From: a virus
Taxonomy: Duplodnaviria > Caudoviricetes
Reading direction: 5' to 3' (one strand)
Virus record (IMG/VR): IMGVR_UViG_3300044796_000135
Span: 1-62,730 of that record
DNA: 62,730 bases
In this document: piece by piece, positions 49,948 to 54,965 of the stretch
Layout of the letters: each line of letters starts with the position of its first letter
Position numbering within the stretch: position 1 is the first letter of the stretch
Made by a program: the position numbers and the translations under genes
The notes under the pieces: generated by a model
Seen by the model: the letters and a program-made list of their open reading frames with translations, nothing else
What the model was told of the DNA's origin: nothing
Database searches by the model: none

Positions 49948-52139
49948 TGGCTGATCCGACCTACGAGTGGAATGACAACGGGAGTGCATCCCCGACAGTT
50001 CCGGGCGATGAGCCCGTCGCCGCGCCTACCACTGCGTCTACGGGTGACACGTCCTATGAGTGGAACGGAAGCGGCAACACGTCTGGCACCGGAGCGCCTA
50101 CGTCTGTTAAGAAACTGCTTCTGCACAAGGCTACGGATTCGTTTCTGCCGCCTCCGCCGTCCGTTCCCCTGTCATCTGACAAAACTCTGGCCCTCCTGCT
50201 TCGTGGAATGACGGGTGGTGGTTCTGATTATGTTGGCGCGGCTGGACAGGTCGCAGGTGATCGCGTCGGCAATATGCTTAACCCAAGCAGCGCTACACCA
50301 TTGTCTTTCAATGATGCCTTAAAGCAACAGGGTCAAAGCGCGGACGCTTCTATGCAGCAAAACCCCATTATGGGGCATGGTGCTGAGATGGCCGGCGGCC
50401 TCACATCCCCTATATTCAATGGAATTAGCTCTGGCGTTAGCAGCGTTCTCGGATCACTCCCGCGTTATCTTAAGTATGGATTGCAGGGCGGAACGATGGG
50501 CATGGCGACTGGTCTCACCTCCGCGCGTGATCAATCTGGCGGCCTGCCGACTGGGCAAGACGTTCAGTCAAGCATGGAAAAGCAGGGCGGAATCGGCTCC
50601 GCACTTGGCGTTGCAATTCCAGGTGCCACCGAATTGGGAATCAAGGCTATAAATCTTTTGCGTGGTGCGCCGCAGATTTTGGATAGTGCCGGAAATGCTA
50701 TCGGAGACGTTACGCAGTCGGCAATACAGAGAATAACAAAAGCACTTGGTCGCGATGATTTGAGCACCCCCGGAACTGCGCAAACAGTTCTCTCAAATTT
50801 AGGTCCGCAGGGTGTGTTGGGTGATGTTGGGGCAAATACGTCGCTTGCTGTTGAGCGCGCTGCTTCCCGTCCAGGCGCACCATTAACCGCCGTTTCTAAA
50901 TTCGCAGCGGCTAGACAGGCTGGTGCGCCAGAGCGCGTGGCCGGTTCAATTACGGACAATCTGGCTGATCCCAATTTCTACGAAATGATTGACGCTCTGC
51001 GCACTCAACGGAACACCATTGCCGCCCCGTTGCGACAGCAGGCGCTTGATGAATCTGCCGGCGTGCCTGTCAAAAGCGACTTGGTACAACGGCTACAGGG
51101 AACGCCTGAATTTCAAAGTGCGATGGCGACTGGTAAGTCGATTGCTCGCATGGAAGCCGCTCGCACTGGTAAAGAAATCCCGCAAACAGAACAGTGGTTT
51201 CATGGCGATAGCTTTGATGATCCTGACATCGAGTCTCGGACTGTTCCTACGCTCCGTATGCTGGATGCTGCGAAACAGGGATACAATGAGCTGTTAAAAC
51301 CATACCGCAATCCGTTCACTGGCGCGCTGGAAAACCTTCCACCAAAAGGGGTGGAGATTGCAAAGACGGCTGACGCGTTGACACAGGAACTTCGCGCAAA
51401 TTCGGATACTTATGGCCAGTATCTTGATAATTGGGCTGATCCGTCTCAATCCATGCAAGCCGTGAAAACTGGCAAAAATTTCCTGACCATGAAACCGCAG
51501 GAAGCATCGCGGATTTGGGACGGAATGTCTGATTCGGAAAAACAATTTGCCAAGGTTGGATTTGCAAAGGCACAGGTCGATAAAGTTGGCGATGTGAGTA
51601 AGGGCGGCAATCCAGCCGGACGACTGCTTGCGACACCAAATCAGACATCTGTCGCCCAAATGATCTACGGTGATGACTTTCCGGCATTTCAGCAAGATAT
51701 GCAGAACGAAGCGACGTTCGCGCAAAATAACTCGAATTGGTTACGTGGATCTCGTACCGGCATCCGCACCAATCCTGAAGAAGACGAAGAAGGTGCTGGC
51801 GGTTCTTTGATTGGTGCGGCCGGCCATGCCGTAAGTGGAAATTGGAAAGGTGCCGCCACCCACGCCGTTGGACCCGCAATTGAGCGCGCCAAAAACATGA
51901 TTATTGGCATGTTTGGTCCCGGCGAAGCGGTTTCAACCGAAATGACAAACAGGCTGCTTTCGCAAGATCCTGCCGTTCAATCTGAAACATTGGATTTGGT
52001 TAATAAGATGGCTGCGGCTCGGGCGCAAAGAATAGCGATGCCGTCTGATCTCGCGGCAAAATCAATATCGTCAATTCCTGGGATTCTTGCGCCTGAACAG
52101 CGCGCCCGCATGAATTTACAAATGCCAGAGGCACAATAG
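49947..52139 (+). CDS. large internal virion/ejection protein
   Basis: 730 aa, last gene before the lysis cassette. Confidence 0.65.
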   Translation: MADPTYEWNDNGSASPTVPGDEPVAAPTTASTGDTSYEWNGSGNTSGTGAPTSVKKLLLHKATDSFLPPPPSVPLSSDKTLALLLRGMTGGGSDYVGAAGQVAGDRVGNMLNPSSATPLSFNDALKQQGQSADASMQQNPIMGHGAEMAGGLTSPIFNGISSGVSSVLGSLPRYLKYGLQGGTMGMATGLTSARDQSGGLPTGQDVQSSMEKQGGIGSALGVAIPGATELGIKAINLLRGAPQILDSAGNAIGDVTQSAIQRITKALGRDDLSTPGTAQTVLSNLGPQGVLGDVGANTSLAVERAASRPGAPLTAVSKFAAARQAGAPERVAGSITDNLADPNFYEMIDALRTQRNTIAAPLRQQALDESAGVPVKSDLVQRLQGTPEFQSAMATGKSIARMEAARTGKEIPQTEQWFHGDSFDDPDIESRTVPTLRMLDAAKQGYNELLKPYRNPFTGALENLPPKGVEIAKTADALTQELRANSDTYGQYLDNWADPSQSMQAVKTGKNFLTMKPQEASRIWDGMSDSEKQFAKVGFAKAQVDKVGDVSKGGNPAGRLLATPNQTSVAQMIYGDDFPAFQQDMQNEATFAQNNSNWLRGSRTGIRTNPEEDEEGAGGSLIGAAGHAVSGNWKGAATHAVGPAIERAKNMIIGMFGPGEAVSTEMTNRLLSQDPAVQSETLDLVNKMAAARAQRIAMPSDLAAKSISSIPGILAPEQRARMNLQMPEAQ

Positions 52140-52146
52140 TCCGCAC

Positions 52147-52503
52147 ATGACCGATAGTTCCGAATCGATTGCCTCGTTGCGCGCCTGGAAAGAAGCGCAC
52201 GAGGACCGCTGCAAAGAGCGGTTCGATGCTAATGCGCGCGACCTGGGCGAGATCAAAGCCGCGATCCAGTATATGAGCGCAGACCTGAAAGAAACGGTTA
52301 AGCGCATCCATGAGCGGAATGAAATCACCGCTACGGCTATCTCGGACACGCGCAGCATGGCCGCAACGGAAATTGTCAAAGTCAATCAACGCATTGATAG
52401 CCACTCTATTAAAACGCTATTGGCTATCCTCGCTGGAATCGGAGGGTTTGCAACTGCGATCAGCGAATGGATATTATCGCATATAGGCGTGGTGCCGAAA
52501 TGA
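52147..52503 (+). CDS. coiled-coil protein with C-terminal TM segment (holin/antiholin-like)
   Basis: HEDRCKERF, C-terminal hydrophobic helix; precedes endolysin. Confidence 0.55.
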   Translation: MTDSSESIASLRAWKEAHEDRCKERFDANARDLGEIKAAIQYMSADLKETVKRIHERNEITATAISDTRSMAATEIVKVNQRIDSHSIKTLLAILAGIGGFATAISEWILSHIGVVPK

Positions 52504-52943
52504 GCCTCGATCCCATCCGCCGCGCTGTATTGATAGACATGGCTTTTGAGTTGGGGCGCTCTGGCCTCGCTGGATTCCCGCACTTCCTCGCAGCCATGCG
52601 TCAGGGCCAATGGGCCACCGCAGCCGTCGAGTTGAAAAACAGCCTCTTATTCTCTCAGGTCCCGCAGCGTGAGCAGGAAAACATCGCGTGCCTCGTCACG
52701 GGCCAGTTCCCGGCTGGGGTAACCTGCGCTGAGGATTTGGTGAAACGCCATGAGGGGCTGACGCAGGTCGCCAAGCCGGACGCCAAGGGCTTCTGGGTTC
52801 TGGGATGGGGCCACGATATTCCCGCGCCGACGGATGGCGTGCCTCCGATCTGCACCTATGAGCAGGCCGAGACGTGGTTTGAGCAGGACATGGCCTTTGC
52901 GGCGGCCCATGCGGAGATTGATCTTGGAACGGAATATTGGTGA
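52500..52943 (+). CDS. endolysin, GH24/T4-lysozyme family, circularly permuted
   Basis: VLIDMAFELG..GL..F...AA.E..NS comes before RHEGL......D..G....GWGH. Confidence 0.85.
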   Translation: MSLDPIRRAVLIDMAFELGRSGLAGFPHFLAAMRQGQWATAAVELKNSLLFSQVPQREQENIACLVTGQFPAGVTCAEDLVKRHEGLTQVAKPDAKGFWVLGWGHDIPAPTDGVPPICTYEQAETWFEQDMAFAAAHAEIDLGTEYW

Positions 52944-53179
52944 TGGATAAACCGGCATCCGCTGGCAAAACAGCCGCTATTGCAGGCATGGCCGCGACCC
53001 AAAGCGTCACATTGCTGCTTTACATCGTCCACAAATTCGGCATTGACGACATGACACCAGAGGTTGCGGCTGCTATTATAGGCGTTGCAACAACGATAGC
53101 GGGAGCCATCATGCATGGCTTCCAGCGCAGCGAAGAAAAGAAAGCTTCCATAGCCATAACCCAAGGATCAGTCACATGA
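52943..53179 (+). CDS. holin-like 2-TM protein
   Basis: Two hydrophobic segments and a charged C-terminus. Confidence 0.6.
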   Translation: MDKPASAGKTAAIAGMAATQSVTLLLYIVHKFGIDDMTPEVAAAIIGVATTIAGAIMHGFQRSEEKKASIAITQGSVT

Positions 53180-53532
53180 GCATTTTCGCCGACTTTGAGA
53201 ATTTCATCACCACCAAAGCGTGGCCGTTCCTGCGCAATATCGGCAAAGCGACCGTGACCGCTGAAATCACGGCGCTGACGCCCATCGCCACAACCTTGGC
53301 GGCAGAGGCTCAAACCGACATCGTGACGGCAGCGGCTTCCGGCTCGCTCAGCAATCTGGGTGCTGTCCTGGGTGCGCTTGTGACTAAGACGGCGGCGCAG
53401 GCAGAGGCGCAGGCGATTACCGCTGGCGCAACATCGCTGCTAGCCTCGGTCGGTACGGCGCTGGCGACCAATACGACCACGGCGACTTCGCTGACGCCTG
53501 CGGCTCCGGTCGCGGCGGTCCAGGGCAGCTAA
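53176..53532 (+). CDS. Ala/Thr-rich hypothetical protein
   Basis: Coupled ORF with AAGGA RBS. Confidence 0.65.
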   Translation: MSIFADFENFITTKAWPFLRNIGKATVTAEITALTPIATTLAAEAQTDIVTAAASGSLSNLGAVLGALVTKTAAQAEAQAITAGATSLLASVGTALATNTTTATSLTPAAPVAAVQGS

Positions 53533-53562
53533 TTTTCTCAACCAAAATCAAAGGAGATTAAG

Positions 53563-53841
53563 ATGTCATCTTTTAAGTCTCAGTCTGCCAATCAAGCCAC
53601 TAATGATCTACCGCGCCCGCAGACAATTACTGAGAGAACATCCGTCGTTCTTTCCAGACTTCACACATTAAATGCCACTCTGGAAAATGTTCTCTCCAGA
53701 GTTCGCGGCGCACAGCCATCGCCTATTGATGGCGGCTTAAAACCAGAACCCGTGCCGAATCTCGAATTGATGCTGACTCGCCTGGAAAACACTCTTTGCG
53801 AAACTGAAAGCCATATTTCAGAGTTTGATCGCAGCATCTAA
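53563..53841 (+). CDS. hypothetical coiled-coil protein
   Basis: AAGGAG RBS. Confidence 0.6.
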   Translation: MSSFKSQSANQATNDLPRPQTITERTSVVLSRLHTLNATLENVLSRVRGAQPSPIDGGLKPEPVPNLELMLTRLENTLCETESHISEFDRSI

Positions 53842-54056
53842 TGTTCTCCTGGCTCTCCATCATCAGCGGCGCGCTCTCGGCTATTGGGAAGGCTCTTGGG
53901 CTGATCCATGACGCCAACGAGCGCGCTGCTGGTGCTAACGCCGTGATCGCCAAAGACAACGCCGCAACTGCAAAGGCCGATGAAAATGCTGCGCAAAGTA
54001 TGGTGGATACCACTGACGCTTCTGTGTCTGACAGCCTGCGCAACGGTAAGTTCTGA
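53841..54056 (+). CDS. i-spanin-like protein
   Basis: N-terminal hydrophobic segment; overlaps a lipoprotein gene. Confidence 0.5.
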   Translation: MFSWLSIISGALSAIGKALGLIHDANERAAGANAVIAKDNAATAKADENAAQSMVDTTDASVSDSLRNGKF

Positions 54057-54216
54057 GGCTCCGGCGCTTCATTGCCCGCCGCTCAAGGATTACACCTTGG
54101 CAGACCAGCAGCGCGTCGCCCTTGAGCGTGGCGGCTTGGCGCTGGATGATCCCATGCGGACCATGATTGACGACTACGGGGCGCTTAGGAACGGTTGCCG
54201 GGCGGCTGGGAAATGA
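53980..54216 (+). CDS. o-spanin-like lipoprotein
   Basis: Lipobox LTAC, CPPL, C-terminal Cys. Confidence 0.6.
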   Translation: MKMLRKVWWIPLTLLCLTACATVSSEAPALHCPPLKDYTLADQQRVALERGGLALDDPMRTMIDDYGALRNGCRAAGK

Positions 54217-54965
54217 AACGCCTCCTCATCGCCGCCACGCTGGCCCTAGCAGCCTGTGGCTCATCCCCGGCACCTACGCCAGTACCAAGTCCGCAGCCAA
54301 TCGTAGCCTACCCGAACGTCCACCCAGGTAACTCGCAATGGGTCATGGCTCCGGGTACATGGGCCGAATACGACTTCGATTCCTACACCGGAACGTTCAA
54401 CCCATTGAACGGCATGATTACCGTCGATCCAACGTCCGTGAAGGTGGTTCAGCAGGAGCGGCAGACCAATCTCGCGTACCACATGCCGCTGGATGCCTCA
54501 CAGCTTGCCATGGCGCGCGTCCAGACGAACGCGGGCTACGCGGCCACGACGGTTGACCCGACCCTGGCCTACACGCTGGTAGAGCGTCAGAGCGCCACGC
54601 TAATAGGGGAGGCGGCGAACCCAGGCGCGGCGTCTCAGGACCCACCAGAGCCGTACACCACGGTGAGCCCCGTTGTCGGCGAAGTCGTCAACACCATGAG
54701 CCTGGTCACGAAATTTGACGGAACCACGTTCTATTTCACGACGCGGTACACCACGATTGCTGTGGGTGTTACCTTTGATGGATTCCCCAACGCCACGGTC
54801 ACCACGCTCACCGAGAACCCCGGCGATGCTGGCAACAACGAGATGGCCTACGTGTGGGTCTTTTCTGGCGGCGAAATCGCGGAAGAGATAATCGGCTGGG
54901 TGGCGGCTGATGGTAGCCTCACGAATGGCGCTTTATTGCGACGGACGGGGATGGGGCGGAATTAG
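54213..54965 (+). CDS. lipoprotein of unknown function
   Basis: MKRLLIAATLALAAC lipobox, Pro-rich linker. Confidence 0.75.
   Translation: MKRLLIAATLALAACGSSPAPTPVPSPQPIVAYPNVHPGNSQWVMAPGTWAEYDFDSYTGTFNPLNGMITVDPTSVKVVQQERQTNLAYHMPLDASQLAMARVQTNAGYAATTVDPTLAYTLVERQSATLIGEAANPGAASQDPPEPYTTVSPVVGEVVNTMSLVTKFDGTTFYFTTRYTTIAVGVTFDGFPNATVTTLTENPGDAGNNEMAYVWVFSGGEIAEEIIGWVAADGSLTNGALLRRTGMGRN

Follow-up and report, generated by a model that had tools for sequence, protein, structure and literature searches.

Genes and features of the lysis region

The stretch of DNA analysed here (the window, 62,730 bases) is a phage genome from a peat metagenome, held as an IMG/VR record with ends classed as linear and a CheckV completeness of 100%. 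Its GC content is ~55–58%, and it encodes a primase, a large terminase, a portal and structural proteins. The features that concern us make up a putative lysis cassette and are listed below, with equivalent positions in T4 lysozyme (T4L).

52147..52503, + strand: upstream 118-aa ORF with one C-terminal TM-like segment, unmatched in Pfam and PHROG; putative lysis protein of the holin or antiholin type
52500..52943, + strand: gene of the permuted GH24/T4-type endolysin (P0001), 147 aa plus stop
52500..52718, + strand: helical lobe, C-terminal in canonical lysozymes (T4L 89–162), residues 1–73; assigned by BLASTP, PDB profile search, VIA-align and PHROG
52713..52754, + strand: new junction of the old C-terminus to the old N-terminus, residues 72–85; linker AGVT, then the helix-A equivalent CAEDLVKRHE up to Glu85
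52719..52940, + strand: catalytic lobe, N-terminal in canonical lysozymes, plus the long inter-lobe helix (T4L 1–88), residues 74–147; assigned by PF00959, BLASTP and the half model
52752–52754, + strand: codon of the catalytic Glu85, equivalent to T4L E11
52779–52781, + strand: codon of Asp94, equivalent to T4L D20
52797–52799, + strand: codon of Val100 at the T26 position, read from the sequence
52943..53179, + strand: holin-like ORF, 78 aa, with two TM-like segments; matches the holin family phrog_9284 (E 2.7e-5)
53841..54056, + strand: putative i-spanin-like ORF, 71 aa, with a hydrophobic N-terminus below the TM threshold and no family match
53980..54216, + strand: putative o-spanin-like lipoprotein ORF, 78 aa, with the lipobox LTAC; matches phrog_26778 (unknown function, E 4.9e-10)

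The ATG of the endolysin gene overlaps the stop codon of the upstream 118-aa ORF (ATGA), and its TGA overlaps the ATG of the holin-like ORF downstream (TGATG). A second possible in-frame start is present at 52467; the N-termini of the homologues in alignment A1, which comprises seven permuted sequences, line up with the Met at 52500 and not with this ATG. Further downstream, the lipoprotein ORF overlaps the 3' end of the 71-aa ORF in another frame, a layout from which we infer an i-spanin/o-spanin pair.

Both halves of the endolysin match T4-type lysozymes in swapped order

A sequence-only reading of this DNA had proposed that the ORF encodes a stand-alone, circularly permuted T4-lysozyme-type endolysin within a lysis cassette, in which the normally C-terminal lobe comes first, followed by a short linker and finally by the catalytic segment. 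Sequence and profile matches, the predicted structure, the homologues and the gene neighbourhood all bear this proposal out. When the protein was compared by BLASTP with the T4-type gene e lysozyme from phage RB5, residues 2–72 aligned with positions 90–160 (42% identity, E 1e-18) and residues 79–135 with positions 5–75 (E 1e-5). Each half likewise matched P0007 and P0009, two close relatives of canonical order, at 43–57% identity (E 1e-17 to 1e-25), again with the order swapped. The swapped-order match of both halves is far beyond chance. The ends of the chain agree with the same arrangement: joining the terminal W to the start of the protein restores the canonical motif, as had been noticed from the letters. 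In the sisters, the motif L(D/N)..R.A.L begins two residues after the equivalent W, and it is with this motif that the window protein opens.

The protein scores 28.6 bits against PF00959 (Phage_lysozyme), above the gathering cut-off of 22.3 and hence sufficient for membership of the family, with profile positions 1–53 falling on residues 82–136 only; the collinear succession of N-lobe and C-lobe is absent, as the C-lobe comes first. The expectation that each half would be recognized by the Phage_lysozyme model held for the N-lobe half, on the positions just given, and failed for the C-lobe half, which produced no PF00959 match when submitted alone. The same pattern was observed in the five permuted proteins tested, where the match to PF00959 is limited to profile positions 1–58 and lies in the C-terminal half; in the canonical sisters P0007 and P0009, the match runs collinearly over profile positions 2–104/105.

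The C-lobe is identified instead by structure, by a profile search of the PDB, by PHROG profiles and by the BLASTP match to T4-type lysozyme. Residues 6–58 align at the very C-terminus of two long profiles that include a lysozyme (tail lysozymes), namely phrog_13211 (positions 824–876 of 887) and phrog_2083 (positions 843–894 of 908), and residues 79–135 match the endolysin family phrog_7. The PDB profile search equated residues 2–71 with T4L 90–159 and returned only T4L variants, all of them via the C-lobe.

Overall, the chain corresponds to the general definition of a circular permutant: two segments homologous to the family are swapped and the old termini are joined, with no other rearrangement. 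The ORF at 52500..52943 thus encodes a GH24/T4-type lysozyme in rotated order, and we consider it very probable that its product is a soluble endolysin whose chain is an exact rotation of the canonical one. Its homology to GH24 is clear but its topology is different, because the permutation itself breaks the collinear order.

The predicted structure retains the two-lobe T4 lysozyme fold

AlphaFold2, supplied with alignment A1, generated a full model with a pLDDT of 94.9 and a pTM of 0.89, and the model of the endolysin held in the ESM Atlas has a pTM of 0.90. The best PDB rows returned by Foldseek were 2o4w ('T4 lysozyme circular permutant'), 1p5c ('Circular permutation of Helix A in T4 lysozyme') and the C-terminal fragment 2o7a. 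In VIA-align, residues 1–85 of the model superposed on residues 89–178 of 1p5c_A (Z 11.1, rmsd 1.6, 85 residues aligned) and on residues 89–181 of 2o4w (Z 10.2), and an alignment was also obtained with residues 89–182 of 2o7a (Z 9.4). Wild-type T4L chains aligned over residues 1–72/74 only, which correspond to T4L 89–162/164 (Z 7.6–8.5). The 12 residues gained relative to the wild-type alignment are the helix-A equivalent, which follows the last helix as it does in the engineered permutants; consistent with this, DSSP assigns a helix to residues 77–85 of the full model.

Since sequential aligners return only one half of a permuted chain, residues 74–147 were folded separately. Residues 2–74 of the resulting half model (pLDDT 93.9) superposed on T4L 1–88 (Z 8.2, rmsd 2.7, 73 residues aligned). 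The superposition on T4L that the sequence-only reading had called for thus gave a separate match for each predicted half, and the structural ranges abut exactly at T4L 88/89, the chain being equivalent to T4L 89–164 followed by 1–88. In these models the two-lobe fold of T4L is kept, with each half superposed separately; how the lobes are placed relative to each other depends on the AlphaFold confidence (pTM 0.89), because superposition of the whole model is sequential only. Among ESM Atlas clusters of at least 50 members, structural matches covered only about half of the endolysin, with TM values of at most 0.48.

Permuted relatives share the junction and appear to be rare

The 157 proteins recovered as candidate relatives comprise nine permuted proteins (the window protein included, one being partial and one C-terminally extended), 132 of canonical order, 14 in which only the C-lobe matched at threshold, and two false positives. 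Later counts use the 128 canonical proteins under 260 aa. The 14 C-lobe-only proteins, in which the C-lobe mostly lies late in the chain, were taken as probable canonical proteins with diverged N-lobes and omitted both from the 128 and from the tree described below. The two rejected candidates are repeat proteins, P0024 of 2644 aa and P0059 of 1027 aa, whose similarity is confined to a GxxxxGWG..P stretch.

Eight further permuted proteins (P0002–P0006, P0008, P0010 and P0011) share the junction, as a genuine permutation had been expected to show, and are 52–62% identical to the window protein. P0008 is partial, and the other seven are full-length homologues with intact frames. P0011 carries a 73-residue hydrophobic C-terminal extension with no similarity to the holin of the window. 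There are 35 invariant columns in the permuted set, the catalytic residues among them. The permuted proteins are 146–153 aa long, and the canonical ones have a median length of 148.5.

The canonical relatives also allowed the rotation to be tested in silico. As single copies, none of the 128 covers at least 90% of the permuted profile, and 80 do so once doubled head to tail; for close sisters the score about doubles (for example, P0014 rises from 107 to 180 bits). The collinear, end-to-end alignment to a known lysozyme that would speak against permutation was accordingly not found for any of these 128 proteins as a single copy.

The permuted order looks rare in the sequence collections covered. 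Among the best 150 of 2606 cluster representatives (E up to 0.001), three are permuted (P0010, P0011 and P0008). A tblastn search of 50,697 deposited phage records matched 1239 of them, none of which covered 80% or more of the query at a single locus; at this sensitivity there seems to be no permuted relative among isolated phages, in a collection from which the window's own record may itself be absent. A scan of IMG/VR yielded a single locus (L002), of canonical order, and a scan of genome contigs gave seven pattern matches, none of which was a relative. The metagenome contig scan gave two loci: L005, which is canonical, and L004, which was taken as the same canonical contig as L002, since the two agree in length and in match statistics. 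In the ESM Atlas we found no large cluster (at least 50 members) that was permuted or matched over the full length, the nearest being ordinary Phage_lysozyme families.

The catalytic pair is conserved and the T26 position is variable

In T4 lysozyme the active site is described as a Glu-Asp-Thr triad, whose third member, Thr26, helps to position the attacking water. Glu85 and Asp94 of the endolysin keep the spacing of E11 and D20, with eight residues between them, and are both present in all nine permuted proteins, while the position of T26 is occupied by Val100, in agreement with the assignments first made by eye. The equivalent of T4L H31, His105, is likewise found in 9/9 permuted proteins, and Asp130, the equivalent of D70, is invariant in A1. 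[quoted passage not shown]

The endolysin therefore lacks the Thr expected of GH24, as do its permuted relatives, in which the T26 position holds V in four proteins, A in three and E in two (Thr in 0/9). Thr at this position is not universal in the GH24 family: the 128 canonical proteins carry T in 93 cases, E in 13, V in nine, S in seven, A in three, and G, Q and a gap in one each, so that 35 of the 128 (the gap included) are non-Thr. The nearest canonical sisters have A, S, V or E. Because these sisters also lack it, the loss of Thr is a feature of the clade that is unlinked to the permutation, and the possible altered chemistry suggested in the sequence-only reading is not supported as a trait linked to the rearrangement.

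The permuted lysozyme as the probable endolysin of the phage

A crude hydropathy scan detected no TM-like window and no lipobox in the endolysin. With no N-terminal signal or SAR segment and a holin-like gene adjacent to it, the protein has the attributes of a soluble, holin-dependent endolysin. It is also the only wall-degrading enzyme found in the window: across this genome, which is rated 100% complete, there was no further match to PF00959 and none to SLT, Amidase_2 or Peptidase_M15_4.

Taken together, these observations make it likely that the protein is the working endolysin of the phage, with activity on a Gram-negative host and dependence on the holin both deduced from the genes. The chain starts at the equivalent of T4L 89, forms the helical lobe up to the old C-terminus and passes through a linker of 4–5 residues into the old helix A; the catalytic beta-sheet lobe comes next, then the long inter-lobe helix, and the chain stops at the equivalent of T4L 88. 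The predicted fold and the active site are kept, the latter with Glu85 as the general acid, Asp94, and the His105-Asp130 pair. The enzyme is therefore expected to cleave the MurNAc-GlcNAc bond of peptidoglycan, and we regard it as probably active. The adjacent holin would give it passage through the inner membrane of its Gram-negative host, and the spanin-like genes would complete lysis.

Alternative explanations

An assembly or gene-calling artefact, such as a chimeric contig or a collapsed tandem repeat, could in principle create the permuted order in a window that derives from a metagenome assembly. Misassembly at the gene ends was one of the refuting outcomes named in the sequence-only reading. 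In a peat-metagenome run, a separately built Logan contig (54,046 nt) includes positions 51800–53600 with 0 differences; this run may be the window's own source sample and is then not independent. A run from another study supplies two contigs of 151 nt, both identical to the window, one of which bridges the gene start (52438–52588) and the other of which ends just before the stop codon (52790–52940). No repeats flank the gene, and diverged homologues from other, independent assemblies have the same order and the same junction. The contigs from two runs together with these homologues exclude misassembly, and we attach only a negligible probability to an artefact of any kind.

The remaining doubts concern what the protein does. 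It is highly improbable that a rearranged lysozyme gene has here lost its lytic function and is decaying, with lysis carried out by some unrecognized enzyme. Several ORFs of the cassette do lack a family, and the search extended to only four alternative endolysin families, one of which (GH19) had a silent control; yet the conservation among the eight same-order proteins, with their seven intact full-length frames and the 35 invariant columns, the confident model and the translational coupling inside the lysis cassette all speak against decay. A folded permuted lysozyme with changed chemistry or regulation, acting as a lytic transglycosylase or a retaining enzyme, or with altered hinge motion, has somewhat more to be said for it, and we still judge it distinctly unlikely. 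The V, A or E found at the T26 position in all nine permuted proteins, against Thr in 93/128 canonical ones, would fit such a change, as would the break at 88/89, which removes the continuation after the C-helix in a fold whose subdomains are tied by two connections (available text of bioRxiv 10.1101/353649). The nearest canonical sisters also lack Thr, however, so that any change in chemistry would belong to the clade and not to the permutation, and the Glu and Asp are invariant. An ordinary endolysin with a rotated chain thus remains our preferred reading.

Origin of the permutation

To place the permutation among its relatives, the N-lobe and C-lobe segments were put in one order and a tree was built from the nine permuted proteins and the first (best) 70 of the 128 canonical ones. 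The permuted label requires one change on this tree, and the permuted rows fall inside a starred 15-row clade together with canonical P0007, P0012, P0013, P0016, P0017 and P0020. The branch that unites the permuted proteins has an SH-aLRT support of 0, and stars mark only four of the 76 inner branches. A single permutation event within this canonical-order clade is most likely; because the uniting branch has a support of 0, the case for it comes from parsimony and from the common junction only.

The junction itself offers a record of how the two ends were joined. The permuted linker from P71 to H84 is 12 residues long. The canonical sisters end 1–5 residues past the TG.WP motif and start 11–12 residues before (H/N)EG, which sum to 13–17. 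CAEDLVKRHEG, with which the linker ends, is similar to the N-terminal helix of the sisters (SAADLVRKHEG and SAADLVIFHEG), and P71 and G73 are invariant in A1. At the opposite side of the rotation, the new termini were formed without loss of a residue, the canonical W-x-x-L-(D/N) being equivalent to the terminal W followed by M-S-L-D. The sequence of the junction would fit a head-to-tail fusion of two canonical copies and supports a route in which a tandem duplication would have been followed by in-frame head-to-tail fusion and by loss of the outer half-copies. No surviving intermediates of this route were found. Of 582 longer candidates, none scored as a tandem or fused form, which is weak evidence; a tblastn search of six canonical sisters against the whole window gave only two in-gene matches below E 0.1 and thus no remnant half-copies; and direct repeats around the gene are of chance size only. 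Upstream of the ATG, the in-frame sequence shows a weak alignment to the last part of the canonical N-lobe, which was judged to be a BLAST extension and was not counted as evidence.

Alternatively, the gene could have split, and its halves could have fused again in the opposite order. There do appear to be lysozyme pieces of half size: the C-lobe alone is matched by phrog_33534 (94 positions, unknown function; residues 2–71, E 1.4e-11), and PDB 4evx_B, a 94-residue 'putative phage endolysin', matches the N-lobe only (Z 7.8). Such a fission and re-fusion would, however, have to account for a junction whose length and sequence are nearly exact for a head-to-tail join and for new termini that lose no residue; moreover, no split forms or related proteins under 80 aa were found, although this is weak evidence. 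We consider this route unlikely and retain the duplication and fusion of canonical copies as our working model.

Implications

The endolysin is a real and conserved natural circular permutant of the T4-lysozyme fold with an ordinary biological role, and it is probably active. It is of moderate to high interest for the study of how proteins evolve and fold. Work on folding, on stability and on engineered circular permutants uses T4 lysozyme as a standard model. In the rotated chain the lobes would be covalently tied only at the junction of helix A and the beta-sheet, beside the catalytic Glu, and the long inter-lobe helix would end free. The permutant and its canonical sisters (43–57% identical per half) form a matched pair in which folding cooperativity, co-translational folding and hinge-bending catalysis could be compared. 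The nearly seamless join, with no residue lost at the termini, also makes the clade a clean example of a permutation arising in fast-evolving phage genes.

One further proposal is possible but doubtful, namely that the clade represents the first case in nature of a circularly permuted T4-lysozyme fold, the topological complement of the engineered variant CP13, and that its rewiring gives the phage a selectable difference instead of being a neutral rearrangement. If this were true, nature would already have run the missing folding-cooperativity experiment on a classic model protein, and the rewiring might alter hinge motion, the order in which the lobes fold on the ribosome, with the C-lobe first, or the moment at which the enzyme becomes active in lysis.

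A separate point concerns annotation. Domain models such as PF00959 give half-length matches on permuted proteins, and for this reason permuted enzymes may pass for fragments.

Comparison with known systems

Full-text literature searches, with most subscription journals and supplements outside their scope, retrieved no published natural permuted GH24/T4-type lysozyme, and a prior description is possible. The sequence-only reading had cited pesticin as an example of a permuted T4L-like fold; the full-text searches returned no paper that links pesticin with T4 lysozyme and permutation, and we know of no such description. Among the matches listed, 'circularly permuted' in the endolysin literature refers to genomes. 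In the case of PHAb10, the same term denotes a dimer arrangement in the available text of PMC11594527. Natural circular permutation of the catalytic domain of a cell-wall hydrolase is described for the NlpC/P60 superfamily (YaeF/poxvirus G6R, LRAT-like) in the available text of PMC6403190. These proteins differ from the window protein in both fold and chemistry, being papain-like Cys-His peptidases and not lysozymes.

Close natural counterparts are the canonical sisters from metagenomes (P0007, P0009, P0013, P0014 and P0016, together with L002 and L005), which have the same length and the same non-Thr residues at the T26 position; P0007 and P0009, at the per-half identities given above, keep the normal order of N-lobe followed by C-lobe. 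The gene e lysozyme of T4 and canonical GH24 endolysins are of similar size, align with both lobes in sequence and predicted structure, and have the Glu/Asp spacing and the His31-Asp70 pair in common. They also share the role of a soluble endolysin in a holin-endolysin-spanin cassette, which is read here from the genes. In contrast to T4L, the window protein is rotated at 88/89, its old termini are joined by a short linker, it carries Val at the T26 position, and its N-lobe is ~14 residues shorter, as indicated by a gap in the BLASTP alignment.

The engineered permutants of T4L (1p5c, 2o4w and, from the Marqusee laboratory, CP13) place helix A directly after the last C-terminal helix, as the window protein does, and residues 1–85 of its model superpose better on them than on the wild type (Z 11.1 and 10.2 against at most 8.5). 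According to the available text of bioRxiv 10.1101/353649, the subdomains of T4L are tied by the end of helix A (12/13) and by the C-helix; in CP13, helix A is appended to the C-terminus and the chain is opened at 12/13, which leaves the C-helix as the sole link between the subdomains. Compared with CP13 as described there, the window protein keeps the link at 12/13 and opens instead after the C/D helices at 88/89, a complementary topology in which the C-lobe is synthesized first. Unlike the engineered permutants, the window protein is a natural and diverged one, on which selection acts in a phage.

Sequence around and within the permuted endolysin gene

The reading frame of the endolysin is open from position 52413, past an in-frame stop, and the stretch that precedes its ATG (52428-52499) could be weakly aligned in the BLAST extensions to the end of the canonical N-lobe, an alignment that is not significant on its own. 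This in-frame stretch and the 3' end of the gene upstream overlap, and any remnant of a first copy would be expected at this site. Within the gene itself, a 13-nt direct repeat, identical at 12 of 13 positions, is found at 52536-52548 and 52887-52899; both copies encode DMAF, one in each half of the protein, and the repeat is probably a product of chance.

Partial, spurious and extended lysozyme relatives

Two matches each cover a single lobe. The family phrog_33534 (94 positions, unknown function) matched the C-lobe only (52500-52712, E 1.4e-11), while PDB 4evx_B, a solved 94-residue chain described as a 'putative phage endolysin from S. enterica', matched only the N-lobe (Z 7.8). Genes that encode half a lysozyme may exist. 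Two large repeat proteins, P0024 (2644 aa) and P0059 (1027 aa), scored E values of 1e-14 to 1e-20 against the lysozyme and were rejected as members, since their similarity to it is confined to a repeated motif, G(Y/F)TF.GW....P..MP, that resembles GFWVLGWGHDIPAP; such repeat matches are a trap for automated counts.

Extensions of 70-100 residues, rich in hydrophobic segments, are found in endolysins of this clade, at the C-terminus of one permuted relative (P0011) and of the canonical-order proteins P0012, P0015, P0023 and P0025. The extended endolysins may be membrane-tethered forms or fusions produced by read-through into the following gene; comparison of the P0011 tail with the holin of the window revealed no similarity.

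Neighboring genes

Two further reading frames lie close to the lysis genes, one in the window and one in L002, the locus that carries the canonical-order sister lysozyme:

54195-54965, + strand: ORF of 256 aa that carries an LAAC lipobox and immediately follows the spanin-like pair
L002:4428-4964: 178-aa ORF, directly downstream of the sister lysozyme

The first, for which the PHROG search returned no family, is a predicted, uncharacterized phage lipoprotein, and the motifs of the second read like those of an HNH/AP2-type homing endonuclease.

Active-site residues across the relatives

Residue statistics over 137 proteins (relatives among P0010-P0157 for the D20 position) showed that the Asp equivalent to D20 of T4 lysozyme is replaced by Cys in 14 of the 128 canonical relatives. 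At the T26 position, Glu is present in 13/128 canonical and 2/9 permuted relatives; the carriers include P0010, P0011, P0009, P0016 and the product of L002:3998-4435. In T4 lysozyme, an engineered change at the T26 site trapped a covalent intermediate, according to the title of PDB 148l. The relatives that naturally possess Glu at this position may use a different mechanism. The change engineered in T4 lysozyme is T26E.
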